The position numbers and the translations under genes are program-made. A stretch of 64,000 nt of DNA from a candidate division WOR-3 bacterium (GTDB lineage: Bacteria > Hydrothermota > Hydrothermia > LBFQ01). Shown in pieces: positions 39,741-64,000 of this stretch (the stretch's first letter is position 1; every line of letters begins with the position of its first letter). Under the pieces are notes generated by a model, which was not told where the DNA came from, did not search any database, and was given only the letters and a program-made list of their open reading frames with translations. The stretch is from assembly GCA_039802605.1 (NCBI GenBank), contig JBDRWW010000007.1, forward strand, positions 1,891 through 65,890. Direction: 5' to 3'.

Positions 39741-41654
39741 TTGTTGGGTTGGTATCTCTGGACTAATACCGAGAATTTGTTGGATGTTTGTAAAAAGAAT
39801 GATACTTTTTATTTGGCAACACCTGGGGGTTTGATAAAAACCTTAGGTGATAGTATAGTAAAGATATACTCAAAGGTTGATGGGATAAACACGGCGGAAG
39901 TTTTATCCGTTTCTTGTGAAAACGGATTGTGGATTTTAACGGGGGCGGGATTACAATATTTTGACAACGGTAAGTTTAAAACCTTGGATTTAATAGCATT
40001 TGAAAACCCCGAAGAAATATTAAGTGGAAGCAAAATAAGGATAAGGGGCGAGTATATGTTTATCCTTGGGAAGACTAAGGTTATGGTTTATCGCTTTACC
40101 GATTCCGCAGAGGTCCCCATAAATATAAGATTTACCAAACCAAAGTTTTTGGAAATTTTCAACGATTCCCTACTGATAGGCGATACATTGGGGTTTTATA
40201 AGGTTAAGTATGATGAGTTTTACCTAAGCGCGTGGGATACGGTTTTTATGGGTAGGCCGGTTTTATCCGCCGTAAAACACCCGAATTTTGGGTGGATAAT
40301 GGGTACGGATAGCGGTATACTTGATACCCTTGGAAACACCCTTTTCCTTCCCGGAAAGATTATAAGGTTTATGGCTTTAAGGGGTGATACTATATATCTT
40401 GCTACGGATTCGGCGGTTTATAACCTATCCCCCCATTCATATACCCCAAACAGGATTAAAGACGGTTATGCGGGTTTCCTATCCCCCTGGTTTTTCGGCA
40501 TTGGTAGAATAAACGCCCCTTATTATATGTTTGGGTACGGAATATATGAAATCCCATCTTTGCAAAAGTTGGAAAGCCGGGGATTACCGTACACAACTCT
40601 GACAGGGGTTATAACCCTTGGGGATAGTGTGATCGTATGCGGGAGGGGAGGGGCAAATGCCTGTGCGGTTTGGCCGTCCGGAAACACTTTTGGATTCGGT
40701 TTAACGAATTTTGTAAGGAAACACAAGGATAAAATATTTTTCGGTTTAAACGGCGGTGGATTGGTGATTACGGATAGTCTATTTACGGATACCGTTATAA
40801 TAACCGCTTCGCAACTAGGTGGATTTGGATATGTTTTTGATATGGCGGTTTTGAAGGATACCGTTTACTTTGTGTCTTGGGAACCATTTGGAAATTCAAA
40901 GGTTTTTAAGCTCGTGGATACGATACCTTATGAAACCGGAATAGTGGATTATGCCACATCTATCCTGTTTTCAACCGGTGATAGGTTAATATTGTGTGGG
41001 CAAAGCGTTTGCAAGATATATTATGATGATTTAACCCCTTATGGTTCCATAAGCGTCCAGGCCAATGTGGTTTATTCCTTTGGAGATACTTTACTTTTTG
41101 GAACCAATAAAGGTGTGGAGATGTATTCCCTTAAAACACTCGGATATATCGGCAAAATTCTTGATAATTATACCATAACGGGCTTATGGGTAGGAATGGA
41201 TGGTAGGATCTGGGCATCGGGGAGTATGGGATTATCGGAATATGACGAAAAGAACCTCCGTATTTTCTCTCCTACAAATTCCCCTTTACCCGGTATATCG
41301 GTTTCCCCAAGCGCATTGTACCCTTTGAGATTTACCCTTTTCGGTGATGTTGAAAGAGGTAGGTTGATAATCTTAACGGAAAAAGGGGTGGCTTTCTTTG
41401 AGGATACCTCAATCGTATCGGGTTGGTGGGATAATTTGGTGATATATCCAAATCCTGCGGGTAAGGGTAAAACCGTAAGGATAAAAAACTGTCCAAATGG
41501 TGCAAACCTTTATATATTCACGCATTTCGGAAAGAGGGTTAAGAATGTAAAGGGTTGTTCTTTTAAAAACGATTTACCACTGGGTTTGTATGTGGTTATC
41601 GTGGAATACAACGGAAGGAGAAAACCTTTAAAGGTGGTACTTTTAGATAGATGA
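39741..41654 (+). CDS. beta-propeller (two-component-regulator-propeller-like) repeat protein with T9SS C-terminal sorting domain
   Basis: Reg_prop-like repeats (GLWILTGAGLQYFDNGKF; GLWVGMDGRIWASGSMGLSEYD). C-terminal Por_Secre_tail-like VIYPNPAGKGKTVRIKN…LYIFTHFGKRVKNV…LPLGLYVVIVEYNGRRKPLKVVLL. TTG start, no signal peptide recognisable. Confidence 0.5.
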   Translation: MLGWYLWTNTENLLDVCKKNDTFYLATPGGLIKTLGDSIVKIYSKVDGINTAEVLSVSCENGLWILTGAGLQYFDNGKFKTLDLIAFENPEEILSGSKIRIRGEYMFILGKTKVMVYRFTDSAEVPINIRFTKPKFLEIFNDSLLIGDTLGFYKVKYDEFYLSAWDTVFMGRPVLSAVKHPNFGWIMGTDSGILDTLGNTLFLPGKIIRFMALRGDTIYLATDSAVYNLSPHSYTPNRIKDGYAGFLSPWFFGIGRINAPYYMFGYGIYEIPSLQKLESRGLPYTTLTGVITLGDSVIVCGRGGANACAVWPSGNTFGFGLTNFVRKHKDKIFFGLNGGGLVITDSLFTDTVIITASQLGGFGYVFDMAVLKDTVYFVSWEPFGNSKVFKLVDTIPYETGIVDYATSILFSTGDRLILCGQSVCKIYYDDLTPYGSISVQANVVYSFGDTLLFGTNKGVEMYSLKTLGYIGKILDNYTITGLWVGMDGRIWASGSMGLSEYDEKNLRIFSPTNSPLPGISVSPSALYPLRFTLFGDVERGRLIILTEKGVAFFEDTSIVSGWWDNLVIYPNPAGKGKTVRIKNCPNGANLYIFTHFGKRVKNVKGCSFKNDLPLGLYVVIVEYNGRRKPLKVVLLDR

Positions 41655-49206: not shown

Positions 49207-52107
49207 TTGAAAAGACTTATTGATTGGAGCGTTGAACATCCCATAAGCGTGGGTATAATCTTTTTCGCCTTGGTCTTTACGAGTTTATATTCCATAAGTA
49301 GGTTAAAGTTGGAACTCTTCCCGGATATTTCCCTTCCTACAATCACCATAATATCGGCATATCCGGGTGCTTCGGTAATTGATGTTGAGGAAAATATCAC
49401 AAAACCCCTTGAAAATGCTTTAAGGGCTGTTAGGGGAATAAGGGAAATAAGTTCAAGGAGTATAGAGGAATACTCCCAAATAACCGTATATTTCAATGCC
49501 GGTGTTGATATTTCAAAAGCCTATATTGAAGTGGTGGATAAGGTTAGGGGCGTGGAGTTGCCAAACGGTGCATTAAAGCCGAGTATTATACCCTTTGACC
49601 CTTCGGTTTTCCCGGTTATGACCGTAGCCTTTCCCGAAGATCAATACGAACTCGTTAAAACCCTATGGGTGAATAGGGTTTTGTCAATTGTGGGTATATC
49701 CCTAGTTCCAACCCTTAGAACCTATGAAGAGTATATATCCGTAAATGTGTTTCCCGAAAAATTGGCAATTTTCGGCATAAGGCCCTCAACTATATTCGGG
49801 CTTATAGGCGAAAGGGCATACTCCTTTCCCCTTGGAAAATCCTCTGTTATAAGCGGGAAATTGGATTTAAGCGGCATTAAAGACATTATAATCGGCAAAA
49901 GGGGGGATAGGCCCGTTTTCCTATACGAAGTTGCGGATATAAAGAATTACCGTGAAAATTACGAGGTATTACAGTTAAACAAAGGGATACCTGTGATAAT
50001 ATCCCCCGTATTCAAATCTTCCGATGCGAATACCTATGAGGTTTCAAGAAAGTTGAAAGAGGTGTTAGAGGAAATAAAAAGGGATGGTAGGTTAAATTTT
50101 TGGGTGGCGATGGATCAAGGTTTTTTAATAGAAAAGGTTGTAAAGGAGGTTATAAATACGGCTATTTTTGGGGGAATACTGGCTGTTATAATTATCCTTC
50201 TATTCACGAGGAGTTTTAGGCTTTCGGCGGTTATATCCTTGTCCATACCGATTTCATTGGGATTAACCTTTATATCCATAGACCTCTTTGGGTACAAGCT
50301 CAACGCCATGACATTAGCGGGCATAGCCTTGGCAATAGGTATGATAATTGACAATTCCGTTGTTGTAAGCGAGAACATTTACAGATATATAACCGAAGGG
50401 TATAATCCTAAGGAAGCCTCTAAGGAGGCAACTTATGAGGTTTTAAGGCCTATATTTTCATCCACAATTACAAACATTATAGTCTTTGTCCCCGTTATAT
50501 ATTTATACGGTGCAATAGGGGAAATAGCCAGAAATGTGGGTATATCTTTTGTTTCCGCATTGTTATCCACCCTCTTGGTATCAACAGCAATAACCCCCGC
50601 TTATGCCCATTACATCCTTGCAAAATCAAAGAGGGTAGAGTTTAAACTGGCAAACATCTATCGTAAGGTTCTAAGCTTTATGATTAAAAGAAAACTGCAA
50701 TTCCCCTTAGCTTTTGTATTACTTTCACCATTGGCTCTAATCCCCTTTGTAGGTGGTGAGTTTGTGCCAATATTGGACTCGGATTTTATATTCCTAGACA
50801 TTGAACTTCCCTCAAACACCCCATTTGAAAAAACCTCTTTGTATATGAAAAATGTGAGCAGATTGCTTTCAAAAATACCCGAAATTGAAAACTACGCGGT
50901 ATTTGTCAGCGCCCCCAAGGATGTCCCAAAGGGTATTATAGCATATGGTGGCGGTATAACGGAGACCTATAAAGGGCAGGCCTTTATAAGGTTAAAGGAG
51001 AGGGCTAAGAGAAAAAGGGCGCAGTGGGAGATAGAGGAAACAATAAGGAATAATCTCCCAAAATTTCCGGGATTAAAGGTTAGGTTTTTACCCGTTGAAA
51101 GGATAACCCTGTTTGGGATGAAGGGTAAGTCCGTATCCATAACGTTTTTAGGACAAGATAGGGAAACCCTTAAAAAGTTGGCCAACAGGTTTGCAGAGGA
51201 TTTAAAAAGGGTTAAAGGATTAACAAATGTCGTCGTTGAAATTCCTCCCGAAATGGATATTTTGCTTTTTAGGCCTAAGGAAATGGTAAAGATCACGGGA
51301 CTTCCAATATCCGAAGTCCAAAAGGATTTAGCACTTTTAAAGCTTTCACCGAAGGCAGTTGAAATAGAAAATACAACGGTCAAACTCAAATATGACGGGG
51401 ATGTATCCGTTTTACCTTTGGTTGGTCAAAGGACAAGGGCATATTTTGTTGATTTTGTTGAAGTTGAAACCTTAAAAACACCTTCAATAATTACTAGGCT
51501 TAACGGGCTCCCTTCCATAACCGTATCCGCCGATAGGACAACACCCAACCTATTAAGTGTATCCCTACAAATCCAAAAAATCCTATTGTCTTACAAACTC
51601 CCACGGGGTTATACATATGTTTTATCCGGTGAGATGTACGAACTCTTTGATATGCTTAAACAACTCACATTAGCCGGGATTTTAGCGGTTGTATTGATAT
51701 TAGCCGTAATAGTATTGCAGTTTGAATCCTTTAAAGAACCCCTTTTCATATCTTTGAGTACCATATTTTCGTTGGCGGGTTCCACATTGTTTATCTATGC
51801 CTTTGGTATAACCTTTTCCATTGTATCACTACTCGGTGTTTTAATTTCCTTCGGAGTGGTGGTTAATAACGGCATAGTAATGCTGGAACTGGCAAAGAAG
51901 ACGGGTATATTAAAGGCCGCCGAAATAAGGTTAAGGCCCATATTAATAACCAATTTAACCACGATTTTCGGCCTCCTACCTTTGATATTTGTGAAAACGG
52001 AAGGTTTTGAGTATAGACAGCCAATAGCCGTGGCTTTATTGGGTGGTATGATATTCGGCTTAATATACTCACTCTTAATATTACCCCTAATATACAAGAG
52101 GCCTTGA
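49207..52107 (+). CDS. RND-family efflux transporter (AcrB/HAE1-like), no adjacent adaptor or OMF gene
   Basis: 12-TM architecture with two large periplasmic loops; LAGIALAIGMIIDNSVVVSENIYRY (AcrB TM4 motif); 966 aa; TTG start. Confidence 0.85.
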   Translation: MKRLIDWSVEHPISVGIIFFALVFTSLYSISRLKLELFPDISLPTITIISAYPGASVIDVEENITKPLENALRAVRGIREISSRSIEEYSQITVYFNAGVDISKAYIEVVDKVRGVELPNGALKPSIIPFDPSVFPVMTVAFPEDQYELVKTLWVNRVLSIVGISLVPTLRTYEEYISVNVFPEKLAIFGIRPSTIFGLIGERAYSFPLGKSSVISGKLDLSGIKDIIIGKRGDRPVFLYEVADIKNYRENYEVLQLNKGIPVIISPVFKSSDANTYEVSRKLKEVLEEIKRDGRLNFWVAMDQGFLIEKVVKEVINTAIFGGILAVIIILLFTRSFRLSAVISLSIPISLGLTFISIDLFGYKLNAMTLAGIALAIGMIIDNSVVVSENIYRYITEGYNPKEASKEATYEVLRPIFSSTITNIIVFVPVIYLYGAIGEIARNVGISFVSALLSTLLVSTAITPAYAHYILAKSKRVEFKLANIYRKVLSFMIKRKLQFPLAFVLLSPLALIPFVGGEFVPILDSDFIFLDIELPSNTPFEKTSLYMKNVSRLLSKIPEIENYAVFVSAPKDVPKGIIAYGGGITETYKGQAFIRLKERAKRKRAQWEIEETIRNNLPKFPGLKVRFLPVERITLFGMKGKSVSITFLGQDRETLKKLANRFAEDLKRVKGLTNVVVEIPPEMDILLFRPKEMVKITGLPISEVQKDLALLKLSPKAVEIENTTVKLKYDGDVSVLPLVGQRTRAYFVDFVEVETLKTPSIITRLNGLPSITVSADRTTPNLLSVSLQIQKILLSYKLPRGYTYVLSGEMYELFDMLKQLTLAGILAVVLILAVIVLQFESFKEPLFISLSTIFSLAGSTLFIYAFGITFSIVSLLGVLISFGVVVNNGIVMLELAKKTGILKAAEIRLRPILITNLTTIFGLLPLIFVKTEGFEYRQPIAVALLGGMIFGLIYSLLILPLIYKRP

Positions 52108-52131
52108 CAAAAAATTTTACCCCCTTATAAT
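52104..52131 (+). promoter_or_regulatory. sigma70-consensus-like promoter TTGACA-N16-TATAAT immediately upstream of exbB
   Basis: TTGACA at 52104-52109 (overlapping the RND stop codon) and TATAAT at 52126-52131, 9 nt before the exbB ATG. Seen directly in the sequence; function inferred. Confidence 0.4.
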
Positions 52132-52140
52132 ATCAGGCGT

Positions 52141-52779
52141 ATGCAAGTGGAAACCTTGGTAGATTATTTCCAGCGCGGCGGAGGAGTAATGTGGCTTATC
52201 CTATTCGTGGCTTTGATAGCCTTGGCCATATCCCTAGAGAGGCTGTACTCTCTATTCATAAAGATAAGGACAAACCCCGTCAAACTCGTTGAAGAGGTGA
52301 TAGCAATAATAGAGGAAAAGGGCGCGAATGAGGCAATAGAGTATCTAAACTCAAAAAAGAGCCCGATAGCAAAGGTGTTAGCCGCCGGCCTCGAAAAGGC
52401 CGGAAAATCCAAGGTTGTGGTTGAAGAAGCGATGACCCGCAGGGCACTAAAAGAGTTGTCTTTCTTGGATAGGGGAATGATTTATATCGCCGCCGCCGTA
52501 ACCTTGGCACCAATACTCGGATTCTTGGGGACTGTAACGGGTATGATACGCGCCTTTGATGCAATAGCTAAGGCCGGTGAGGTTGAGCCGAGCGTGGTAT
52601 CCGCCGGTATATCCGAGGCATTGCTAACAACCGCTTTCGGTCTCCTGGTTGCGGCGCCCTTTTCATTGCTTTACAGCGTGTTTATGGATAGGATAAACTC
52701 CTATCAAAAGCAAATAGAGGAGGCTTCAAACTATCTAATAGAATACCTCGTTGAAAGCGGTATAGTTAGGGAAATTTAG
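52141..52779 (+). CDS. exbB: MotA/TolQ/ExbB proton-channel protein
   Basis: 3-TM MotA_ExbB topology with a conserved C-terminal TM pair (ALLTTAFGLLVAAPFSLLYSVF). Confidence 0.8.
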   Translation: MQVETLVDYFQRGGGVMWLILFVALIALAISLERLYSLFIKIRTNPVKLVEEVIAIIEEKGANEAIEYLNSKKSPIAKVLAAGLEKAGKSKVVVEEAMTRRALKELSFLDRGMIYIAAAVTLAPILGFLGTVTGMIRAFDAIAKAGEVEPSVVSAGISEALLTTAFGLLVAAPFSLLYSVFMDRINSYQKQIEEASNYLIEYLVESGIVREI

Positions 52780-52781
52780 CC

Positions 52782-53207
52782 ATGGCCATTTTCAAAAGGG
52801 TTCAGCTAGAAGAGGAGGCCGAAATCCCAACGGCCTCTATGGCGGATATCGCCTTCCTCCTTATAATATTCTTTATGACCACGACAAATTTTGCAAGGGA
52901 AAAGGGGTTAAAGTTTGTATTACCCGAGAAGAAAGATCAACCCCAGGAGTTAAAAGTAAAAAGCGAAAACTTACTAAAAATTTCTATAAACGACAGGGGA
53001 GAGGTGTTTTTAAACGATGAGCAAGGGGATTGGAACAACCTTGAAAGGGAGGTTAAAAGGCGTTTGGAGAAAAATCCCAAGTTGATAATATTTATAAGAA
53101 CCCACAAAGACGCCCCTTATGAGTATATGATAAAAGCCTTTGACGCGGTAAAGGCCGCCGGGGGAACAAGGGTTGGTTTGGGTATAATAGGGGAGGTTCA
53201 ACAGTGA
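52782..53207 (+). CDS. exbD: ExbD/TolR biopolymer transport protein (copy 1)
   Basis: IPTASMADIAFLLIIFFMTT single TM with the conserved Asp; periplasmic C-terminal domain. Confidence 0.8.
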   Translation: MAIFKRVQLEEEAEIPTASMADIAFLLIIFFMTTTNFAREKGLKFVLPEKKDQPQELKVKSENLLKISINDRGEVFLNDEQGDWNNLEREVKRRLEKNPKLIIFIRTHKDAPYEYMIKAFDAVKAAGGTRVGLGIIGEVQQ

Positions 53208-53611
53208 GGCTACCCAGAAAAAGGCTGTACAAGGCATCAATACCGACGGCCTCCATGTCCGACATTGCATTCCTCCTTATAATATTCTTTATGACCGTTA
53301 CCATTTTCAGGAAGGCTAGGGGTTTACCCGTTCAACTCCCTTATGCCAAAACCACGGAAAGGATCCTTAAACAGAGGGATTTGTCCTATATATGGATTTC
53401 CAAGGATGGTAAAATCAGTGTTGATGATAACCTCGTTTCAGCCAAAAGGGTATCTTTAATATTCCGGACAAAGATACAGGAAAACCCCGCACTCATAACA
53501 TCAATTAAGGCGGATAAAGATGTCCCTTACAGGTATGTTTATGATGTTATGGAGGCTTTGAGGGATGCCAACGCTTTGAGGATAGTATTCTCAACCCGTA
53601 AGGGGGGATGA
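53204..53611 (+). CDS. exbD: ExbD/TolR biopolymer transport protein (copy 2)
   Basis: IPTASMSDIAFLLIIFFMTV. Paralog of the preceding gene, with ATGA overlap. Confidence 0.8.
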   Translation: MRLPRKRLYKASIPTASMSDIAFLLIIFFMTVTIFRKARGLPVQLPYAKTTERILKQRDLSYIWISKDGKISVDDNLVSAKRVSLIFRTKIQENPALITSIKADKDVPYRYVYDVMEALRDANALRIVFSTRKGG

Positions 53612-54258
53612 TGAAAAAGGTTAATTTTATTGAAAAAATTCGGAGTGAAAATATCCTTGAACTTGAATATCCAAGGGATTTAAATATTGCCTTTACGGTT
53701 TCCTTAATTTTAACGATTTTGGTCTCTCTCTTCGGTAAGGGTTGTTCCGTTGAAAACTACAATCCGAAAAAAACTTCGGAAATTATGGGGGAAGAAATTA
53801 ACATACAAGCCGAAATAGAACAACCACCACCTCCACCGCCAAAACCAAAGGTTTCCTTACCGGAGGAAATAGTTGAAACCTCGGAGGAACAGGCTGATAC
53901 CGTAGAAGTTCAAGAGACCATAAACTTTCAAGAGGATGTACCTCCACCGCCCGCACCAACCCAAACGGTCTTTGAAGTTTATGAGGTTGATGAACCCCCA
54001 CAACCCATATTACAAGTTCAACCCCAATATCCGGAAGTGGCCAGAAAGGCGGGTTTAGAGGGAAGGGTTATAGTTGCCGCCGTAGTGGATGAAAACGGCA
54101 ATGTGATTCAGGCTACAATCCATAGTAGCACAAATCCGATTTTTAACGAGGCGGCCTTAGAGGCGGCAAAGAAGATGAAGTTTAAACCCGCGAGGCAAAA
54201 GGATATAGCCGTTAAGGTAAAGGTTTTAATACCTTTTGTGTTTAAACTTACAAAATGA
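53608..54258 (+). CDS. tonB: energy transducer TonB
   Basis: N-terminal TM; Pro-rich spacer QPPPPPPKPKV / VPPPPAPTQ; TonB_C domain YPEVARKAGLEGRVIVAAVVDENGNV; strong SD AAGGGGGG upstream. Confidence 0.75.
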   Translation: MMKKVNFIEKIRSENILELEYPRDLNIAFTVSLILTILVSLFGKGCSVENYNPKKTSEIMGEEINIQAEIEQPPPPPPKPKVSLPEEIVETSEEQADTVEVQETINFQEDVPPPPAPTQTVFEVYEVDEPPQPILQVQPQYPEVARKAGLEGRVIVAAVVDENGNVIQATIHSSTNPIFNEAALEAAKKMKFKPARQKDIAVKVKVLIPFVFKLTK

Positions 54259-54272
54259 AAGGGGGTAGGAAA

Positions 54273-57200
54273 ATGAAGAGGCTTTTTTCATTATTCTTAA
54301 TTTTATGGGCTGCGCCCCTTTTTGCACAGTATGGTAAAATAGTGGGTAGGGTTACGGATGATAAGGGTAATCCCCTACCCGCCGCAACCGTAAAGATAGT
54401 TGAAGGCCCTTCAAAGGGAGGTGCCTATGCGGACGATAAGGGTTATTTCGTGATCCTAAGACTTCCACCCGGAAAATACACCCTTGAAGCCAGTTATATA
54501 GGTTATAGATCCCAGAGAATTAAGGATGTTGTGGTTGAAAGCGATAGGACAACGGAGATAAATTTCAGGCTTGTGGAGGAAGGGGTACAGGTAAAGGAGG
54601 TGGTGGTTGAGGCGAAGGAACCACCCGTTAAGAAGGATGAAACCGAAAGTAAGGCTACGATAAGGAGCGAAAATATCCAAAATATACCCGTTGCCTCGTT
54701 GGAGCAGGCCATCTCTTTGAGCTCCGGTGTTAGGGTTTCGGGTGGGGTTATACAGGTAAGGGGAGGTCGTCCCGGTGAGGTTTCCTATGTGGTTGATGGC
54801 GTTGAGGTGGTGAACCCGTATACCGGTGTTCAAAACATAAGTTTGCCTCTGAACGCCATTCAGGAAGCCAGCGTTAGTAAGGGCGGCTTCGGTGCGGAAT
54901 ACGGTTCGGCTTCCTCGGGTGTGGTGGCCGTATCGACAAAAGAGGGTTCAAACAAATATGAGATTTCCCTGCAAATGTTTTCAAGCGTTGGCACAGGTGG
55001 CTTTTTCAATACAGAAGTTGGAGATCCTTATCTCAAATATTTTAGGAGGGAATTTTTCTACGGGGGTGACAAATACCAAGTTAAATATAATAACAACTAT
55101 ATAAGTGGGGGTGCATATTACGATACCCTTATGAAATTTGACAAAGAAAGGGCAGAAACATACAAGAATAAGCTCTCAGAATTTTCTCAAAAAGACCCAT
55201 TATTTAAAGATTTTGGATACACGCCAGTGGTTCGGGATTACTACGCATTTCCGTGGAGGGAAAATTATTTCAGGCCTATTATAGGCTTTGGAGGTCCAAT
55301 TTTACCATTTTACGACGCCCTAAGGTTTTATGTATCTTATGATTATACCAATACGCAGGGGAGGTTCCCAACCGAAGGTTCGGTTCAGGGGTCATATCAG
55401 GCAAAGATTTCTTGGTTTATAACACCACAGCTAAAGGTGTTTTTCGGTTCCGTTGGGACTAAAAGCGGATTTAGTGTGCTTGGATACCCATCCACATTTA
55501 GACTTATATTGCCGAGAATACCATATGCGGTAAGGGATGCAAGGCAATACTCTTTTGGTATAAACTACGCCCCTTCAACGAAAACATATCTTGAATTCAG
55601 GCTTGGCTATTTCTCCACCAAGACGAAATCCGTAACATTTATAGATGTTAATCAAAACGGTATAGCGGATATGGCGGATAGGGATGGGGACTTTCTCCCC
55701 GAGATAGATACCGGTATGTTAAGACTCATAGGTAGGAGTTTAAACCCAACATATGTACATGAATCCGACCCCAACGGTTGGGTGGAGTTGAAGTATTTCT
55801 GGTGGGAGGATGTACCGCAAAACTATAACCCAACATTTGCAAAGGGAACTAAAAGGCAAAACTATTTTGTAGGTGTCGTTAAAGGGACAAACGATACGGT
55901 TTTACTCGTGGTTGGTGATACCCTTTACGATTCCAACAATAACCCCGTTCAAGTTGATACCGTTTATACGGTAAGGAACTGTTATATACCCTATGAGAAC
56001 AAGGTTAAGCCCTGCACCACAAAGTATGTTTTCTCCAACATTTATACACCTACCCCTTACACTTGGTACACCCGCATTTTGGACTTTTTGGATAATAACA
56101 TCACTTGGAATGGTAGGATAGATCTTTTGGCACAAGACCCATTCGGCCTCAAAGGGCATGAGTTTAAGACCGGATTTGAATATTATAAATACTTCCTGAA
56201 CAGGAGGAGTATTGACTACGCGTCGGGCGGAAATATATACATAAACTATGTTGATGTGTCACCCGTAAAGTTTGCTTACTACATAAGGGATAAGATGGAA
56301 TTCGAAGGGTTTATAGCAAATGTCGGTATAAGGTTTGATTACTTTAATCCGAATTCTTGGTTCCCCGAGAACATAGAGGATCCGGTAAAATCGGTTAATT
56401 TTGCAAAGCAAAGCTTTATATTCACAAGGGATTCCGGCGTCTTCTACAATCCGGACATTAGGGATACATTCTTCCTAAAAAACCCCAAGAGGGCTCCTGC
56501 GAGTTGGTATTTAAGCCCTAGGATAGGTATATCACACCCGATATCCGCAAATCAAGTTCTACACTTCACTTATGGGCACTACTTCCAAATCCCAAACCTT
56601 AGGTGGTTGTATAACAACCAGTTCTGGATAATGACGGGTGCGTTTAACGTTATAGGCAACCCCACACTCAAGCCTGAAAAAACCATATCTTATGAAGTTG
56701 GGGTTAAAACGGCGATAACACCTTGGTTGGTATTTGACATTACGGCCTTCTACAAAGATATAGCGGACCTTGTTCAGAGTAAATGGATATACATAGGAAA
56801 TACCGGCCAACAATATACTACATTTGTTAACCAAGACTTCGGTTCCGTTAGGGGGTTGGAGTTCAACCTCTCAAAGACACCCGGAGGGGGCTCAGGATTG
56901 CTTGCACCTTTGACTTTAAGCATATCTTATACTTTACAGTTTGCAAAGGCGAGTTTTTCAAGCCAAACCAGTTCTTATGCATTAACATGGGCGGGCTTGG
57001 CCCCGGAATACTCGGAAGAACATTATGTTGATTGGGATGAGAGAAATGTTATAAATGCCTTAATATCCTACGATATCCCAATAATCAAATCCCAACTCTT
57101 AGAGGGTTATGGTATCTCCTTCATTTACACGTACGGAAGCGGTACCCCTTGGTCCCCACCTTATAGGGATGTTAGGGATGTTATAGAGAAGACCAACACT

Positions 57201-57446
57201 CTCAGGTTTCCGGCAAGGCCAAACCTCGATTTTAGGGCTTATAAGAGCTTTGCACTTCTCGGTGCAGATTTGAGGTTCTTCGTTGATATATACAACCTCC
57301 TGAATTTCAGGTATGAAACCGGTTACAGCGATCAGAATTATTACTACTATTTCGGTGATCCCGAAGGCGCTTCTAAGGATCCTACCGTTTGGAACAGGGG
57401 TAGGCTAACGAGGTACGGTTTGCAAATAACTTGGAGGCAAAAATAA
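54273..57446 (+). CDS. TonB-dependent outer-membrane receptor with N-terminal CarbD_reg-like domain (SusC/RagA-like)
   Basis: Signal peptide MKRLFSLFLILWAAPLFAQ; carboxypeptidase-regulatory-like GKIVGRVTDDKGNPLPAATVKIVEG; plug region; C-terminal aromatic (…ITWRQK). ~1060 aa. Start moved to the second ATG, which follows the SD AAAGGGGGT. Confidence 0.85.
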   Translation: MKRLFSLFLILWAAPLFAQYGKIVGRVTDDKGNPLPAATVKIVEGPSKGGAYADDKGYFVILRLPPGKYTLEASYIGYRSQRIKDVVVESDRTTEINFRLVEEGVQVKEVVVEAKEPPVKKDETESKATIRSENIQNIPVASLEQAISLSSGVRVSGGVIQVRGGRPGEVSYVVDGVEVVNPYTGVQNISLPLNAIQEASVSKGGFGAEYGSASSGVVAVSTKEGSNKYEISLQMFSSVGTGGFFNTEVGDPYLKYFRREFFYGGDKYQVKYNNNYISGGAYYDTLMKFDKERAETYKNKLSEFSQKDPLFKDFGYTPVVRDYYAFPWRENYFRPIIGFGGPILPFYDALRFYVSYDYTNTQGRFPTEGSVQGSYQAKISWFITPQLKVFFGSVGTKSGFSVLGYPSTFRLILPRIPYAVRDARQYSFGINYAPSTKTYLEFRLGYFSTKTKSVTFIDVNQNGIADMADRDGDFLPEIDTGMLRLIGRSLNPTYVHESDPNGWVELKYFWWEDVPQNYNPTFAKGTKRQNYFVGVVKGTNDTVLLVVGDTLYDSNNNPVQVDTVYTVRNCYIPYENKVKPCTTKYVFSNIYTPTPYTWYTRILDFLDNNITWNGRIDLLAQDPFGLKGHEFKTGFEYYKYFLNRRSIDYASGGNIYINYVDVSPVKFAYYIRDKMEFEGFIANVGIRFDYFNPNSWFPENIEDPVKSVNFAKQSFIFTRDSGVFYNPDIRDTFFLKNPKRAPASWYLSPRIGISHPISANQVLHFTYGHYFQIPNLRWLYNNQFWIMTGAFNVIGNPTLKPEKTISYEVGVKTAITPWLVFDITAFYKDIADLVQSKWIYIGNTGQQYTTFVNQDFGSVRGLEFNLSKTPGGGSGLLAPLTLSISYTLQFAKASFSSQTSSYALTWAGLAPEYSEEHYVDWDERNVINALISYDIPIIKSQLLEGYGISFIYTYGSGTPWSPPYRDVRDVIEKTNTLRFPARPNLDFRAYKSFALLGADLRFFVDIYNLLNFRYETGYSDQNYYYYFGDPEGASKDPTVWNRGRLTRYGLQITWRQK

Positions 57447-57458
57447 AGGGGGTGTGAA

Positions 57459-59768
57459 ATGAAAAAGGTTCTTGTAATTTTATCCTTAGCACTGGCGCTG
57501 CCATTATGGGGTAAGGACAGGTTTCCAAAAAGGGCGGGGGATTTTAGGGCTTTTGCGGCCGTTAACGATGCATGGTGGGTTTTAACCACAAACGAAATAT
57601 GGACAACCCTATCAAACTTTGGAGAACACGGAGATGCGAACACGGTTTTACCGGGATATTCTTGGCCGGGCAATGCCCCGGGTCAGAATGTATATTATCT
57701 TTGGGATGGTAGGGTTTGGTTGGCCGCTTATGTAAACGGAACGAAATATGTTACGCATTACGACTACGGCCAAAAGGAGTTTGCCCCAAGTGAAACCAAT
57801 ATGGGTTCGGGTTTTGCTTGGATAGGCCCGGATAAGTCTTCCCTTGATGTTGAGGCCCATTACGACGATTGGAGGCGTAATCCCAATTACAGAAACGGCG
57901 CAAACGGCTTGGGTGTTAAAATCATTGAAAGGATCCTTGCATGGCCTCAATATCCCTTCTCTCAATTCTATGCTTATGAGTTGGGTGTAATATACAATAG
58001 GAGTGAGGCTTCGGTCTCACCCGCGCCGGATACATTGGAATTTTTCATTGGTTGGCAGTACGATGCGGATGTTTGCGGTGCGGATAATACGAGCCCTCAT
58101 ATAGACGACCTCGTGTATTACGACGGGGCGCCGGAGGAATGCGGTATATACTTTACAAAAACCTACAAAATGGGTTGGGAAGATAGTTTAACCGTTCTTT
58201 CGGATACGATTATAAGCCGTCCGGATGGGATCCCCGACGGTTATATCGTTTGGGGTGATGACCCTTGGGAAAAGGCGATTACGCAAGCATATTATTCCGC
58301 AAAGGGCCTTACCGGGCCCGATAGTTTCCCATTGACGAGGCCAAAGAGGGATGGGAGCGGCGATACAACGGTGTATTATTACTACCTGATACCGAGGAAT
58401 ACATCCTTCATTTATGATAGCGATAACCCGACTGAGCCGGGTGATGATACCGGTGATAACGGTTTGTGTCCCGGTTTCATAGGCATGATGTTGTTATACG
58501 CCCCTCCAACATCAAACGACATAACGGGTGTGGGAGGTGGTCTTTCATCCTCTTGTAGTGGAATTACATTGGCCCGCGGTGTAGACCCAAGGGATAGTAT
58601 GAGGATAATATATCCGAGGGCACATCAGTGGTGGAACTGGGAAAACGACCCCGGTGACGATGCCGCAAGGTTTGACTATATGGTAGGAGACCATCCCGCT
58701 ACGAGGCCTTATAGGTTCGCGCCACATCCTTATGATGTGGGTGCAAGGGAGTTTGATTACAGGTTCTTGCTAACAAGCGGTCCCCACAAAATAGCCGATG
58801 GGGATACCCTGTGGTTTGTGGTTATTGGTGCCGTGGGTCAGGGATTAAACGGTGGAAAGAATACGCTTTGGTATAGCGGACAATGGAAGATGGGGTTGAG
58901 GCAAGTAATGGAGCAGGCTTTGAGGACATACTATACGGGTTCGGAGGGTTATTGCGACCCCGCGCATCCTTGTCCCCCTCGTGGTCCTTACAACGGGAAG
59001 CATTGGAGGATTCCCGTTCCCCCATCTTCGCCAACATTGTCTTACGGCCCTTCGGGTGATTCGGTTGTGTTGATATGGGATAAAAAGCCGGAATACACGC
59101 CAGATCCAATAAAGAATGTTATAGACTTTGCCGGATATGCGATTTATAGGGCATTGCATGGTCCAAACTTCAACGACGCTCCTATAAAAATCCTCGTTGA
59201 TGCCACAAAGCCTTACAAAGATAGCGTTAAAAACTATTGGATGTCAATATACCCCGATGTACCCATAGAGGAAGTTAATTTTGCGGGCACCGAGAATAGG
59301 TATGTTGACAAAAGTGCTCCCAAAGGTTTCCCCTTGTTCTATGCCGTTACGGCCTTTGACTGGGAACCATCCATAGGGGCCAGCCTTGAAAGTTCAAAGA
59401 ACAATTATCTAAAATACGCCTCCGGAGCGCCGAGGCCCATATATGTCGGAGGTTCTCCGGGTGGGCAAGATTGGAAGGATAAAATAGTTGTTGTACCCAA
59501 CCCCTTAATAGGTTGGTCAAAATGGTCTGCTACAAAGCAAACCCCCGAGATTCGCTTCTTCAATGTACCCGCGGGTGCCAGAATAGACATATATTCAGCC
59601 ACGGGTGACCATATTAAAACCTTAGAAAACAGGTCTCCGGCTTCCGGTTCCATATCTTGGAACCTCTTAACACCCCAGGGAAGGCTTGTAGCACCCGGCA
59701 TATATTACTTCCGAGTTGTTGATGAGAAAGGCGAGGATTATGTTGGTAAGTTTGTAATCTTGAGGTAG
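57459..59768 (+). CDS. large secreted protein of unknown function with T9SS-type C-terminal sorting domain (cargo 1)
   Basis: Signal peptide MKKVLVILSLALALPLWG. Trp/Tyr/Asp-rich body, FN3-like segment, C-terminal VVVPNPLIGWS…RIDIYSATGDHIKTL…APGIYYFRVVDEKGEDYVGKFVILR. No HEXXH or other catalytic motif seen. Confidence 0.5.
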   Translation: MKKVLVILSLALALPLWGKDRFPKRAGDFRAFAAVNDAWWVLTTNEIWTTLSNFGEHGDANTVLPGYSWPGNAPGQNVYYLWDGRVWLAAYVNGTKYVTHYDYGQKEFAPSETNMGSGFAWIGPDKSSLDVEAHYDDWRRNPNYRNGANGLGVKIIERILAWPQYPFSQFYAYELGVIYNRSEASVSPAPDTLEFFIGWQYDADVCGADNTSPHIDDLVYYDGAPEECGIYFTKTYKMGWEDSLTVLSDTIISRPDGIPDGYIVWGDDPWEKAITQAYYSAKGLTGPDSFPLTRPKRDGSGDTTVYYYYLIPRNTSFIYDSDNPTEPGDDTGDNGLCPGFIGMMLLYAPPTSNDITGVGGGLSSSCSGITLARGVDPRDSMRIIYPRAHQWWNWENDPGDDAARFDYMVGDHPATRPYRFAPHPYDVGAREFDYRFLLTSGPHKIADGDTLWFVVIGAVGQGLNGGKNTLWYSGQWKMGLRQVMEQALRTYYTGSEGYCDPAHPCPPRGPYNGKHWRIPVPPSSPTLSYGPSGDSVVLIWDKKPEYTPDPIKNVIDFAGYAIYRALHGPNFNDAPIKILVDATKPYKDSVKNYWMSIYPDVPIEEVNFAGTENRYVDKSAPKGFPLFYAVTAFDWEPSIGASLESSKNNYLKYASGAPRPIYVGGSPGGQDWKDKIVVVPNPLIGWSKWSATKQTPEIRFFNVPAGARIDIYSATGDHIKTLENRSPASGSISWNLLTPQGRLVAPGIYYFRVVDEKGEDYVGKFVILR

Positions 59769-59778
59769 GAGGTGGAAG

Positions 59779-60768
59779 ATGATGTGGATATTGTTGGCCC
59801 AGGCGGATACATCCGGTAATCCCTTTGCAAAGGTGGGGATAGTGGGGTCCAAGATTTTAACTATAACCACATCCCCAAAGGTGGCGGCTCTGGGTGAGGC
59901 CGCCGTTACACTTTTGGGTTCAGACCCGTTGCTAATGCTAAGCAACCCCGCATCCGTCATATTTGCAACGAATAGGGCCGTTGGAGTCGGTTTTGTCCCT
60001 TATTGGGTTCAAACATACATATCGGATGTTGCATACATTCACCCAATGCGTAGGTATACCTTAGGCTTTTACATACACGGCGTATATTCCGGGGGGTTTA
60101 AGCATACTATCATAGATGAAAGCGATCCAAAGGGTTATAAGGAGTTGGGGACATTTAGTTATACCGGCATGGTTCTCGGGACCGTCGCGGGTGGAAGGCT
60201 AACCGATAGGTTCTCGGTTGCAATAGCGCCAAAATTTATGTGGGAAGGTTTTGGGAATTTTACAAATGTGTGGGCCTTAGCATTTGATGTTGGAACCTTA
60301 TACGAAACCGGTTTCAGGGGAATAAACATAGGTATGAGCGTATTAAACTTTGGGTTTGACCCTTCCCTCAGCGGAACTTACACGAGGTATATATACAGCG
60401 GAGGGGATTTAATAGAAGACACATCAAAATTCTCTTCCTACAAACTACCCTTAACATTTAAGGCGGGCATATCCTTGGACATTTTCAGGGGTGCTTACCA
60501 CTCACTTATGGGCATGTTTGAGATAAATCACCCAAGCGATAATTCGGAGTCCATAAATGTGGGTTTAAAGTATTCATATGCGGGTGATCTTGTATATTTC
60601 AGTTTTGGTAAGAAGTTTAGGGATGGGTGGTGGGTTTCCCCAACCCATGACGAACTCTTCGCCGCGGGTTTTGGATTAAACCTATTTGGCATATCCTTTG
60701 ATTACTCCTACACGGTTAATTATCGTATGCCGGATATTAGCAGGTTTGGTTTTGTTTATACATTTTAA
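59779..60768 (+). CDS. PorV/PorQ-family (FadL-like) T9SS-associated outer-membrane beta-barrel protein
   Basis: N-terminal family signature VAALGEAAVTLLGSDPLLMLSNPASVIFAT (compare [24 protein letters not shown] of PorV/PorQ). Beta-barrel alternation with a C-terminal aromatic (…FGFVYTF). Short N-terminal leader (MMWILLAQA). Confidence 0.55.
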   Translation: MMWILLAQADTSGNPFAKVGIVGSKILTITTSPKVAALGEAAVTLLGSDPLLMLSNPASVIFATNRAVGVGFVPYWVQTYISDVAYIHPMRRYTLGFYIHGVYSGGFKHTIIDESDPKGYKELGTFSYTGMVLGTVAGGRLTDRFSVAIAPKFMWEGFGNFTNVWALAFDVGTLYETGFRGINIGMSVLNFGFDPSLSGTYTRYIYSGGDLIEDTSKFSSYKLPLTFKAGISLDIFRGAYHSLMGMFEINHPSDNSESINVGLKYSYAGDLVYFSFGKKFRDGWWVSPTHDELFAAGFGLNLFGISFDYSYTVNYRMPDISRFGFVYTF

Positions 60769-60774
60769 AGGGGG

Positions 60775-63588
60775 TTGAAAATGAAAAGGTGGTTGTTTAT
60801 TTCGTTATTCGGGGTTATGCCCCTATGGGCTTTGAACATAGGTGATACCATAGAGGTATATTTACCCCAGTTGCGCTCTTCATTCGCCTGGGATAAATTC
60901 CCAACAAAGGCGTATATAGCCGACACGGCATACGGGGCTTATATAGCGGTTTTTAGATACAATTTGTACCCTTTCAGGATAATAGAGGTTGCGAATTTTA
61001 GGGACTTTCCGCCCGCAGCCTGGGAGGCAGGTCCGCAATGGTCCAAGAAGATAGAAATAGAGGGTTCAAGTATATACTATCCCTTTATAAAATACACTTC
61101 TGACGGCTTTACGGGTACCACCTATGTGCAAACCCCTCCAATAAACCTATACATCACAAATACGGTGGATACCGTTGTATTCACATATAAACTGACATAC
61201 CTAAACCCCAACGATACCATAAAGGTTATGTTTGCCAAGGTTTCCGATACCACCTGTTGGGTTTCGGCAGGTGTTATCACCCCTTCACCAACAAGAACCC
61301 AAGGGAGATTCCCCGTGCCCATAGGTGGCCCTTGTGGTTTATCGGATAACGATACGGTTTTTGCCAGGATAGTTTTTGTGGATAATTCAAACCTTTCATT
61401 GGATACCACAAGGTATTTTGCTATATACGATTTCTATGTTGGTGGTAGAACATATAGGCCTTACAGGAAAGCTCCAAGAGATGTCGCACCCGATACCCTT
61501 TCCATTTCAAAAGCCGATAGCATAGTTTCCGATATTAAAAATGCATGGAACGGCGTTAAAAGCGCAATAGACAACTTTATGGGTGTTAATCCGTCCGATT
61601 TGGTCGATAAGGATGGAAACGGCAGAGTCATAATACTTGTAGGCCCATATCATACGGTTAGTCCTGCCGATGTCAGCAACTTTCCCGATGCCGCGTTGTG
61701 GCCACCCTTGGTATTCTACGATGTATTTGACGAGAACAATGCGGAGATTATATATTTAAATACCGCTTGGAACCTTTATTATAGCAAATTCCCAACCTCA
61801 GATCCCAATAGGATTGATTATTTGAGAAAGGCTTTGGCGTTTTATTACGCAAAATATGTTGCTTATAGTGTTGATAGGACCGAAGCGGATACATCAAGGT
61901 ATTCAAGGGCCTTTATAAACATGAACCTGTCGTTTAAAGCCGCTTGGATTGCCCACAAAGCGATGGTTAGCTCCTTTGACCCCGATAGTCTGTACTCTTA
62001 TGCCAAGGGTATATTTAACGATATACTTTATTCGTTTGGAACGGGAGCCGATGCAACATATCTATTTTCTACGGCAACCCTTTACGATGGCAAGATGGCA
62101 AGATGGCGCGACATAGCGAAAAATGCAATTTGGATGCTTTACCTGGAAGAGATCACAAGTGAAAACGATGTCAAAAACGCCATAAGGGAAAGGGATATTC
62201 CGTTTATATATTTACCGGTAATACCCAACTCCGCTTTGAACCTAATAAATTCAAGGGGTAAGACCTTCCAAGAGGCCTATGAAGAATTTTCTTTAAAGGT
62301 TTTTGCGGCGGGCAGGCCTTATATTTCAAGGATTAGTGGCTTTCCAACATTTTCAAACCCGCTACTTAGAAATACCGTTTTATCTTCTAATCCTCCATCC
62401 ATAAGTTTAAAGGCGAATCAGTTAACCCTTTATTCCGCCACGGCATTCTCTTTTGGCTCGAGTTCGGTGTGGCTAACATTTGATGGGGATGATAATAACT
62501 TTATAAACGACACATTAAGCGGGTATAAGGTTTATGTAATAGACACGGTTTCAAACACATTTAACACGTTAAACCTTGATAGCAGAAATAGGGGTTATAT
62601 AACCAGAGCCCCATCATTCGCCTTGATTATAAACTACGGAAATCAGGGTGTATATGTAGCGGGGGATAAGGATACAACGGACGCTTTGGTTAGGCCTGTG
62701 ACCTTGCTAGGTTTCTTCGTACAACCCAATTATGCATTTAAGAGATATGTGGATGTTTATGCCATAACCGATACATTTGCATACTTTGACGCGAGTTATA
62801 ACCGCAGCGCCGATGGATTAGAAGTTATATTCTATCCCAACGACACTTCGAGGTACGGTTATACCATAATAACACTTAAAGGGGTTGCAAACCGCGTATA
62901 CGGTGCTAGTACATACCTTTGGTTTAAGGATATAGCGAATAACTCCTATTACGGGCCTATATACTACAAGATATACCGCCTGCAGAGCTTTGCCGGATTT
63001 GATTATAGGAAGCCCGACAGCGTTTCCGATAGCGGTGTAATACAAAGCGTTAAAATCGGAAAAGAAATTGTTGAGGCTTATCCTAATTTGTTGTATATGA
63101 GATCCCTGTCCTCCGAAAGGGACATACTCGTATTCCATAATCAAAAGGGTGAATTCACGTTTTCCGAGCCCGTTGATGCCGAAGTAAGGGTAAAGTCTCA
63201 AATGGGCGACAGAATTTTTGTATATGACGGAATTGATTGGAAAGAATCGGAGACTTTCTACGATATTAATAAGGGTGAAGCCGTTGCTTATGTATCCGGC
63301 GCTTATAGGGTTTATGTGGGCAAGGACAAACCTTACAGCTCACCATCAACATTTAAAGCCTTTTCCGAAGTTGGAAGAGTTAGGGTTTTAATACCTTACA
63401 AGTCAAATCTCAACATTATAATATACGGGTTGTCCGGAAGAAAGGTTAAGGAAATAACCCTTAAAGACCTACCAGCAGGTGGATACGAGTTTAGTTTAAA
63501 AGATTTACCAAAAGGTGTTTACATGGTTAAAGTTTTTGCGGGCAACAATAAGGCCGTTGTGAAGGTTATAAACGGAGGTGGGAGATGA
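60775..63588 (+). CDS. large secreted protein of unknown function with T9SS-type C-terminal sorting domain (cargo 2)
   Basis: Signal peptide MKMKRWLFISLFGVMPLWA; 937 aa; C-terminal …NLNIIIYGLSGRKVKEITLKDLPAGGYEFSLKDLPKGVYMVKVFAGNNKAVVKVINGG. No catalytic motif recognised. Confidence 0.5.
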   Translation: MKMKRWLFISLFGVMPLWALNIGDTIEVYLPQLRSSFAWDKFPTKAYIADTAYGAYIAVFRYNLYPFRIIEVANFRDFPPAAWEAGPQWSKKIEIEGSSIYYPFIKYTSDGFTGTTYVQTPPINLYITNTVDTVVFTYKLTYLNPNDTIKVMFAKVSDTTCWVSAGVITPSPTRTQGRFPVPIGGPCGLSDNDTVFARIVFVDNSNLSLDTTRYFAIYDFYVGGRTYRPYRKAPRDVAPDTLSISKADSIVSDIKNAWNGVKSAIDNFMGVNPSDLVDKDGNGRVIILVGPYHTVSPADVSNFPDAALWPPLVFYDVFDENNAEIIYLNTAWNLYYSKFPTSDPNRIDYLRKALAFYYAKYVAYSVDRTEADTSRYSRAFINMNLSFKAAWIAHKAMVSSFDPDSLYSYAKGIFNDILYSFGTGADATYLFSTATLYDGKMARWRDIAKNAIWMLYLEEITSENDVKNAIRERDIPFIYLPVIPNSALNLINSRGKTFQEAYEEFSLKVFAAGRPYISRISGFPTFSNPLLRNTVLSSNPPSISLKANQLTLYSATAFSFGSSSVWLTFDGDDNNFINDTLSGYKVYVIDTVSNTFNTLNLDSRNRGYITRAPSFALIINYGNQGVYVAGDKDTTDALVRPVTLLGFFVQPNYAFKRYVDVYAITDTFAYFDASYNRSADGLEVIFYPNDTSRYGYTIITLKGVANRVYGASTYLWFKDIANNSYYGPIYYKIYRLQSFAGFDYRKPDSVSDSGVIQSVKIGKEIVEAYPNLLYMRSLSSERDILVFHNQKGEFTFSEPVDAEVRVKSQMGDRIFVYDGIDWKESETFYDINKGEAVAYVSGAYRVYVGKDKPYSSPSTFKAFSEVGRVRVLIPYKSNLNIIIYGLSGRKVKEITLKDLPAGGYEFSLKDLPKGVYMVKVFAGNNKAVVKVINGGGR

Positions 63589-64000
63589 AAAGGATTATAA
63601 TTCTAACAATACCGATATTGGCCCTTATAATGTCCTGTAAGGTTAAGGAAAACGCTCCGAAAGCCTTCAACAAAGACGATATGCTTGGAAGGGGCTGGTC
63701 GTACTATAAAGATGGCAAGTACGATTCCGCTGCCGCGATTTTTGACAGCATAATAAACGAGATAGATCCCTCCGATATGGAGGCGCATTTGGGTCTCGGT
63801 TTATCGTATGCGGGGTTGGGTTATTACTCTTTGGCCCATAACGAGTTTTCACTCATTTACTCCAAAGACTTACCCTCGTTCATATGGGATATAAACCTTT
63901 ATGTTGATACGGCATACGAAGACACCATTGGGAATACATATAATGCAAAGGCAAACGCGGAGTTGGTCGGAAGACTCCGTGTATTTAGTACAAACCCACC
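63585..64000 (+). CDS. TPR-repeat lipoprotein (5' partial; continues beyond window)
   Basis: MKRIIILTIPILALIMSCK lipobox; TPR-like GRGWSYYKDGKYDSAAAIFDSII…AHLGLGLSYAGLGYYSLAHNEF. ATGA overlap with the preceding gene. No stop codon before the window ends. Confidence 0.45.
   Translation, partial: MKRIIILTIPILALIMSCKVKENAPKAFNKDDMLGRGWSYYKDGKYDSAAAIFDSIINEIDPSDMEAHLGLGLSYAGLGYYSLAHNEFSLIYSKDLPSFIWDINLYVDTAYEDTIGNTYNAKANAELVGRLRVFSTNP

Follow-up and report, generated by a model that had tools for sequence, protein, structure and literature searches.

In a 64,000-nucleotide stretch of a candidate division WOR-3 genome (GenBank assembly GCA_039802605.1, contig JBDRWW010000007.1, positions 1,891 to 65,890; hereafter the window), we analysed a run of genes encoding a Ton motor, a TonB-dependent receptor (TBDR), two large proteins (X and Y) bearing type IX secretion system (T9SS) C-terminal domains (CTDs), an outer-membrane barrel of the PorV/PorQ family and a tetratricopeptide-repeat (TPR) lipoprotein. 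The reading that we favour, and regard as an evenly balanced call, is that they encode an import complex powered by TonB, with capture proteins that the T9SS delivers and that dock on a PorQ-like barrel of their own; it would be a functional analogue of SusCD or RagAB with a different build. We advance somewhat more tentatively the wider proposal that this is a previously undescribed multi-phylum outer-membrane machine, in which a TonB-dependent transporter works with a T9SS-exported set of capture proteins (one with a supersandwich, one an M30 protease inactivated long ago and one of BNR type) held by the PorQ-like barrel and the TPR lipoprotein, and which would be a non-Bacteroidota answer to SusCD's problem.

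To assess conservation of the gene block, we scanned one genome per species, found 241 genomes with an X relative and examined the best 80 of the 241, counting synteny with an open reading frame (ORF)/phmmer pipeline plus context look-ups of X relatives and using evaluable loci as denominators. Gene order was fixed as TBDR, X, PorV-like barrel, large CTD protein (Y'), TPR lipoprotein and second CTD protein (Z'), with the TBDR directly upstream of X in 60 of 63 loci, the barrel directly downstream of X in 64 of 69, a Y' of at least 700 aa with a CTD next in 50 of 53, a lipoprotein of TPR size in 41 of 44 and Z' in 36 of 44. Median gaps within this cassette were 10–15 bp, and its hosts, all metagenome-assembled genomes (MAGs), represent about ten mostly uncultured phyla and include WOR-3, Hydrothermota, Stahlbacteria, TA06, Calditrichota, LCP-89, KSB1, Marinimicrobia, Zixibacteria and Cloacimonadota. 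The arrangement of receptor, cargo, PorQ-like barrel and cargo that an initial annotation had described in the window is therefore strongly conserved across the sampled loci. The six-gene core has been inherited as a block across many phyla, indicating that its genes work together as one functional unit.

We found that the ExbB-ExbD-TonB energising system is complete, as initially annotated, with ExbB, two ExbD and TonB_C domains all matched above Pfam gathering scores. The receptor combines a signal peptide, a CarboxypepD_reg N-terminal extension, a TonB box (KEVVVEA) located between that extension and the plug, the plug itself (PF07715, 40.8 bits, cut-off 23.9) and a 22-strand-type barrel (PF00593, 84 bits, cut-off 27), and its family profile matches CirA, PhuR and RagA when compared with the PDB. 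The earlier description of this protein as SusC-like holds for the extension, the TonB box and the plug, but not for the barrel, which is more like that of heme-type receptors. On the SusC model TIGR04056 the receptor scores 93.6 bits against a cut-off of 368.25, over model positions 2–217 only, and 33 of 34 receptor orthologues likewise fall short of full-length SusC/RagA. Its barrel region scores best with heme/hemoglobin receptor models, far below their cut-offs, and no curated subfamily cut-off for TonB-dependent transporters, siderophore, heme and B12 equivalogs included, is reached. The exbB-exbD-exbD-tonB genes are joined to the cassette only in the WOR-3/Hydrothermota clade (17 of 57 loci) and, rearranged, in Aegiribacteria; this fusion, together with a TonB box and plug that are both intact, speaks for a receptor that is truly driven by TonB and performs active transport.

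The first T9SS-tailed protein, X, was called unrecognisable in function by the initial annotation; its fold can in fact be recognised, although it belongs to no sequence family. The AlphaFold2 model of X (pLDDT 81.5, pTM 0.79) shows, in order, a galactose-mutarotase (GalM)-like β-supersandwich (approximately residues 35–520), an FN3-like domain and a 7-strand C-terminal β-sandwich. Glycoside hydrolases with a GalM-like N-domain (GH15, GH65, GH94 and GH116) align over about 280–320 residues, all in that N-domain, and in the model no (α/α)6 or equivalent catalytic domain follows the supersandwich, the remainder being FN3 and CTD. X gave no CAZy-type or peptidase match in Pfam or NCBIfam, and about 10 Asp residues, one His (H389) and a WWNW motif are invariant. 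The X CTD scores 14.5 bits on the T9SS type A model TIGR04183 (cut-off 23); its relatives carry PF18962, and a CTD hidden Markov model (HMM) built in this analysis matches it at E 4.5e-7. Among solved structures the CTD matches only PorZ and PorU, weakly (E about 4e-4), and the C-terminal β-sandwich of the model also matches PorZ. We rejected X as a PorZ, since the similarity is confined to the CTD: X does not match the PorZ model (NF052228, cut-off 260 bits) and has a supersandwich and FN3 domain with no β-propellers. Judging from the model, X looks like a binding protein, with a carbohydrate-binding-type β-supersandwich, rather than an enzyme. The 628-aa X-like proteins of Fermentibacteria (L006 in our numbering of loci and contigs) lack synteny and were set aside. 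G+C content is 0.49 inside the X gene (58001–60000) compared to about 0.43 in adjoining genes, which may reflect the Gly/Pro/Trp/Asp-rich composition of X.

The 14-strand-type barrel encoded between X and Y had been assigned to the PorV/PorQ family, an assignment that our searches confirm: it exceeds the cut-off of the subfamily model NF033709 (Table 1), on which three orthologues score 184, 224 and 206 bits. It reaches neither equivalog, scoring 65 bits on PorQ (NF033711, cut-off 220) and 21.5 bits on PorV (NF033710, cut-off 250), and even the best orthologue remains below both cut-offs at 128 and 97.7 bits, respectively. By score the barrel is nearer PorQ than PorV, as it is in all orthologues. 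Its place next to a protein with a PorZ/PorU-type tail agrees with the published proposal that particular CTD proteins are retained and anchored by cognate PorV-like barrels (PMC10202324). Identification as BamG was rejected because BamG belongs to the FadL/Toluene_X family and the match here is to the PorV family. In the window's clade (59779–59820; L007–L018) the barrel signal peptide is very short, MMWILLAQA followed by D, with no basic n-region, and orthologues of other phyla have ordinary signal peptides ending in AQ(E/Q)FAKVGT.

The second large protein, Y, carries the signal peptide MKRWLFISLFGVMPLWA and a CTD that scores 30.3 bits on TIGR04183, its last 70 residues being matched by 4578 representative proteins. 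T9SS tails had been reported on both large proteins; that of Y stands, above the cut-off, and that of X, below it, is probable from support at the family level. The close Y family is small (12 proteins), and a word-indexed search for deeper relatives returned nothing new; an exhaustive search returned about 10 distant core relatives along with thousands of CTD-only matches. An iterated HMM of the Y core unites 66 of the 69 sequences searched (59 positional orthologues and ten distant core relatives), and a 27-sequence core alignment matches lugdulysin, an M30 zinc metallopeptidase, at E 6e-31 over 230 positions. The model of Y (pLDDT 67.7) comprises an N-terminal jelly roll, an α/β-helical core, further β-sandwiches and the CTD, with the M30-type domain at approximately residues 240–530 flanked by CBM/MAM-type jelly rolls. 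The LAHEYQH of lugdulysin aligns to ALAFYYAK in the window's Y and to AHQLLR, AYLYGR and similar strings in other lineages, and the third-ligand motif WLNE is lost in the window's Y, leaving a W-x-x-E-G remnant in some lineages. HExxH is absent from the window's Y and from all 59 positional orthologues. Y is thus, as read from its sequence, an anciently inactivated M30 homologue, or pseudo-protease, and looks like a binding protein rather than an enzyme. The suggestion that Y represents an uncharacterised family is accordingly replaced by homology to M30 metallopeptidases with a destroyed zinc site, while the reported lack of catalytic signatures in X and Y is upheld, neither containing HExxH and the sole GxSxG being non-conserved. 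We also rejected Y as a PorU sortase, the similarity being at the CTD level only and the protein M30-like, not C25-type.

The TPR lipoprotein has the lipobox LIMSC with the lipidated Cys at position 18, a Cys found in 38 of 38 orthologues, and just two generic TPR motifs are recognisable in it. The proposed absence of a SusD-like partner is correct at the sequence level, with no SusD Pfam match in any cassette protein and matches of the lipoprotein limited to generic TPR, but the cassette does include this universally conserved lipoprotein, which could act analogously. As a SusD homologue the lipoprotein was rejected, a profile of 38 orthologues having given only generic TPR matches in the PDB and Pfam. 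At least two acidic residues lie within six positions after the lipid Cys in 21 of 38 orthologues (CSDKSDN, CEDQSEN), most of them outside WOR-3 (e.g., L069:17613-18926 and L056:17375-18313); this pattern resembles the surface-lipoprotein export signal of Bacteroidota, and the window protein (CKVKENA) has one acidic residue. Among 30 Z orthologues, a Por_Secre_tail was found in 24 and BNR_2 or BNR matches in 7 and 6, respectively, and the Z-family CTD matches cleaved cargo CTDs such as that of RgpB. The three T9SS-tailed proteins look like binders rather than enzymes.

The initial annotation had proposed a surface-exposed capture-and-uptake system, with T9SS-anchored proteins in the role of SusD/E/F-type lipoproteins, a proposal that our results partly support. 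Under the import reading, X would be exported by Sec, translocated by the T9SS and then keep its CTD and remain attached to the PorQ-like barrel, in the manner of PorZ with PorQ and PorU with PorV, and Y and Z may likewise stay docked there. The barrel would pack beside the receptor, and the TPR lipoprotein would assist in assembling or capping the complex. A polymer fragment (peptide, glycopeptide or glycan) could then be captured by the supersandwich of X, the cleft of the dead protease Y and the jelly-roll and BNR modules, and passed to the receptor, where TonB would pull the plug for import. A hint at the substrate comes from eight WOR-3/Hydrothermota loci in which an S8 subtilase follows Z on the same strand (L003:19045-21696, L023, L025, L027, L029, L030, L043 and L051). 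The L003 enzyme, the only one checked, has intact DTG/HGT/GTSMA motifs and a T9SS CTD; no such subtilase follows Z in the window's own clade. A T9SS-tailed subtilase after the cassette suits foraging on proteins or peptides and, taken with the dead protease Y, hints at peptides or glycopeptides as substrate.

Several observations weigh against this interpretation. The cassette is near-universal, mostly single-copy and placed beside housekeeping genes, unlike substrate-specific polysaccharide utilisation loci (PULs), and this distribution would suit core envelope machinery just as well. TBDR-like proteins can have other roles, as shown by Oar of Myxococcus, which serves export. The X CTD has its weak similarity to PorZ and PorU, the invariant Asp, His and WWNW residues of X could form a catalytic or metal site and X could then be an enzyme, the Y model is of only moderate confidence, and we infer the protein contacts, surface location and substrate. 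An alternative that we consider unlikely is that the genes encode a T9SS-associated cell-surface assembly or attachment module and not an importer, in which X and the barrel would be a PorZ-PorQ analogue, a glycan-binding protein held by its uncleaved CTD and presenting glycolipid for cargo anchoring, with Y, Z and the TPR lipoprotein as further residents and the TBDR-like barrel, comparable to P. gingivalis PG0534, as a partner with a structural or energising role. The closeness of the barrel to PorQ, the PorZ/PorU-like tail of X, conservation like that of core machinery and the non-catalytic appearance of X, Y and Z would all suit such a module, and the TBDR-like PG0534 is listed as a T9SS component and needed for T9SS function (PMC5445135), another role open to such receptors. 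However, X lacks β-propellers and no PorZ or PorU equivalog match extends beyond the CTD, Y is M30-like and no sortase of the C25 type, a TBDR is absent from the known attachment complex, and the receptor has a canonical TonB box and plug and, in three clades, its own fused exbBDD-tonB, as for active transport.

We consider it less likely again that the locus is degradative and PUL-like, with X, and possibly Z, acting as enzymes from new families (for example, a glycoside hydrolase, lyase or epimerase that uses the supersandwich as its scaffold, or a BNR sialidase-like enzyme) that cut a polymer at the surface for the receptor to import the products. In aldose epimerases and some lyases, active sites are indeed built from supersandwich domains, and the many invariant acidic residues of X, with H389 and WWNW, as well as the BNR matches in Z orthologues, are what this explanation would predict; yet X is without enzyme-family matches, Y is by its residues certainly inactive as a zincin, and the cassette has no linked regulator or inner-membrane sugar transporter. 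It is highly improbable that the genes adjoin one another by accident, or have no more than a transcript in common, and that the receptor works alone as an ordinary vitamin, metal or heme transporter. Although the barrel region leans towards heme/hemoglobin models, it does so far below their cut-offs and no siderophore, heme or B12 equivalog cut-off is reached, no Rfam element, riboswitch or other, occurs at gathering scores in the part of the window from 48 to 64 kb, and chance adjacency is contradicted by synteny, with the TBDR-X-barrel order kept in at least 60 species of about 10 phyla at 10–15 bp gaps.

The nine closely packed plus-strand ORFs of the initial annotation were reproduced by our ORF check at the same coordinates (Table 1), with intergenic spacing of +2, −4, −4, −4 (or +14 with the TBDR start at 54273), +12, +10, +12 and −4 bp. 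A contig of another candidate division WOR-3 MAG (L007, GCA_039802765.1) is 99.94% identical to window positions 52891–64000 and encodes an identical Y protein; on it the full TPR lipoprotein is 400 aa and is followed by a tenth gene, Z (570 aa), and then by convergent genes. The annotated operon span of 52104–64000 is therefore right at its start but not at its end, as Z lies past the window, and the predicted operon has ten genes, exbB to Z, under one promoter. The nearest named relatives are Candidatus Caldipriscus (83%).

Table 1. Features of the transport locus, in window coordinates (scores in bits).
Feature	Position	Strand	Matches and remarks
Promoter, TTGACA-N16-TATAAT (predicted)	52104..52131	+	sigma-70-type; 12/12 match
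exbB, 212 aa, proton-channel subunit of Ton motor	52141..52779	+	PF01618 102.5, cut-off 22.9
exbD copy 1, 141 aa	52782..53207	+	PF02472 104.6, cut-off 25.4
exbD copy 2, 135 aa, GTG start after GGGGAGG	53204..53611	+	PF02472 81.8, cut-off 25.4
tonB, 216 aa: membrane anchor, Pro-rich linker, TonB_C	53608..54258	+	PF03544 76.5, cut-off 24.6; TIGR01352 70
TBDR, 1057 aa	54273..57446 (ORF opens 54255)	+	PF13620, PF13715, PF07715, PF00593 above cut-off
X, 769 aa: signal peptide, galactose-mutarotase-like β-supersandwich, FN3-like domain, probable T9SS C-terminal β-sandwich	57459..59768	+	
PorV/PorQ-family outer-membrane barrel, 329 aa	59779..60768	+	NF033709 100.7, cut-off 90
Y, 935 aa: jelly roll, predicted dead M30-type domain, β-sandwiches, T9SS type A CTD	60781..63588 (ORF opens TTG 60775)	+	
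TPR lipoprotein, 5' part (138/400 codons), cut by window end	63585..64000	+	TPR matches

The promoter reported directly after the stop codon of the upstream gene was recovered as the sole perfect match in the 64 kb (0.02 expected). Its −10 element stops 9 nt short of the exbB ATG, and exbB is without a Shine-Dalgarno sequence, whereas most genes downstream of it do have one. A TATAAT 7–9 nt before the exbB ATG is kept in ten related loci with differing upstream genes; this recurrence and the missing Shine-Dalgarno sequence suggest that the exbB mRNA is probably leaderless or nearly so, which seems to be a conserved trait of the window's clade. More distant relatives have TTGACA and TAAAAT elements and, after them, a leader with AGGAGG. 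The ATG that opens the TBDR ORF (54255) is without a Shine-Dalgarno sequence, and the ATG at 54273 is preceded by AAGGAGG and called as the start on L007, so the true start is probably 54273, with a 14-bp gap after tonB rather than a 4-bp overlap. Similarly, the 937-aa ORF of Y probably starts at ATG 60781, giving a protein of 935 aa.

Upstream of the promoter lies a co-directional gene for an AcrB-type pump of the resistance-nodulation-division (RND) class (49207–52107, 966 aa, PF00873 497 bits), with a 33-bp gap to exbB. This gene is kept upstream in only the four closest relatives, overlapping exbB in three of these, and it was rejected as part of the unit because it is not conserved beyond those four and the promoter separates it from exbB. 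The RND gene is solitary, with no adaptor or outer-membrane factor gene adjoining, and its stop codon falls within the −35 hexamer of the exbB promoter. Where the Ton genes are not fused to it, the cassette follows tig-clpP-clpX-engB, or gltX, a surA-like gene and two PilT-like ATPase genes; in the latter, TA06-/Stahlbacteria-type loci (L048:4851-7002; L037–L039, L046) the two PilT-like (T2SSE) ATPase genes stand immediately upstream of the receptor, after gltX and the surA-like gene. An Aegiribacteria MAG (L005:13280-15713) has two GWxTD-domain proteins in place of Y and the TPR lipoprotein, and its Ton genes lie between receptor and X. A Cloacimonadota-labelled MAG (L036:1-11998) contains a tandem TBDR-X-barrel-TBDR-X module, and another MAG has one module copy on each of two contigs (L013, L016).

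Elsewhere in the window, a 637-aa ORF (39741–41654) has no Pfam domain and a C-terminal part that weakly matches the PorZ model NF052228 (E 1.4e-4), and its product may be a further protein with a T9SS tail. Five large ORFs of 454–750 aa have no NCBIfam match (626–2878, 29375–30739 and 30724–32364 on the minus strand, 13461–15077 and 20137–21789), and the four that were Pfam-scanned, all but 29375–30739, gave no match. Among the window's other ORFs, those identified are housekeeping genes (FtsK, PBP2, RecJ-like, GltX, an aminotransferase and an M28 peptidase).

The component classes of this locus are known (TonB-dependent transporter, Ton motor, T9SS cargo and PorV/PorQ barrels), but their fixed six-gene combination, present in most of the 80 species loci examined, is apparently new, and we found no description of the TBDR-X-barrel-Y-TPR-Z combination in the searchable literature. 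If the import model is true, it explains how Fibrobacteres-Chlorobi-Bacteroidetes-related lineages without SusD equip large TonB-dependent transporters for polymer capture, gives the T9SS a new job in building resident transporter complexes, beyond secreted enzymes, adhesins and its own attachment complex, and offers a clean example of an anciently fixed pseudo-protease serving as a binding module. If the locus is instead an assembly module, it reveals unknown T9SS or envelope machinery outside Bacteroidota. Under either reading X, Y and the barrel become concrete targets.

Precedents exist for the individual parts of the proposed complex. In the P. gingivalis attachment complex the pair of T9SS proteins with retained CTDs, PorZ and PorU, stay bound to PorQ and PorV, non-covalent anchoring by an uncleaved CTD is the published model, and cognate PorV-like barrels retain CTD proteins and have genes clustered with those of their cargo (PMC10202324). 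Our locus shares with this complex a PorV/PorQ-family barrel adjoining a probable T9SS protein with a CTD closest to the retained ones of PorZ and PorU, but its barrel fails the PorQ and PorV equivalogs, a supersandwich in X takes the place of the β-propellers of PorZ, a C25 sortase domain is absent, and a TBDR and Ton motor are linked to the unit. PorP/SprF-type barrels with type B cargo (SprF-SprB) similarly pair a cognate 14-strand barrel with cargo encoded beside it and thought to be anchored by it (PMC10202324), although the barrel here is of the PorV/PorQ family and the CTDs belong to type A (TIGR04183, PF18962). The docking role proposed for the PorQ-like barrel has a structural precedent in BamG-BamH of the Bacteroidota β-barrel assembly machinery, in which a FadL-fold 14-strand barrel against a larger barrel forms a platform for extracellular proteins (PMC12578637); that system differs in having a FadL/Toluene_X-family BamG and lipoproteins beside BamA, compared to a PorV/PorQ-family barrel, a TBDR and T9SS cargo here. 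Y resembles the M30 zinc metallopeptidases hyicolysin and lugdulysin (PDB 7bb8) in sequence and fold but has lost HExxH and the third-ligand motif and added jelly-roll domains and a CTD.

The closest functional comparison is with the SusCD and RagAB utilisomes of Bacteroidota, of which RagAB is a peptide importer. Like these, the locus encodes a large TonB-dependent transporter that has a CarboxypepD_reg-type extension, a TonB box of the EVVV type and a plug and is encoded and conserved alongside surface proteins resembling binders, and the lifestyle context of polymer and peptide foraging is also shared. In contrast to them, its receptor barrel falls outside the SusC/RagA family and it has no SusD/RagB homologue; its partner proteins carry T9SS CTDs instead of lipid anchors, in place of the SusD/E/F lipoproteins; and the unit includes a PorQ-like barrel and forms one conserved locus, as opposed to the variable, multi-copy PULs.

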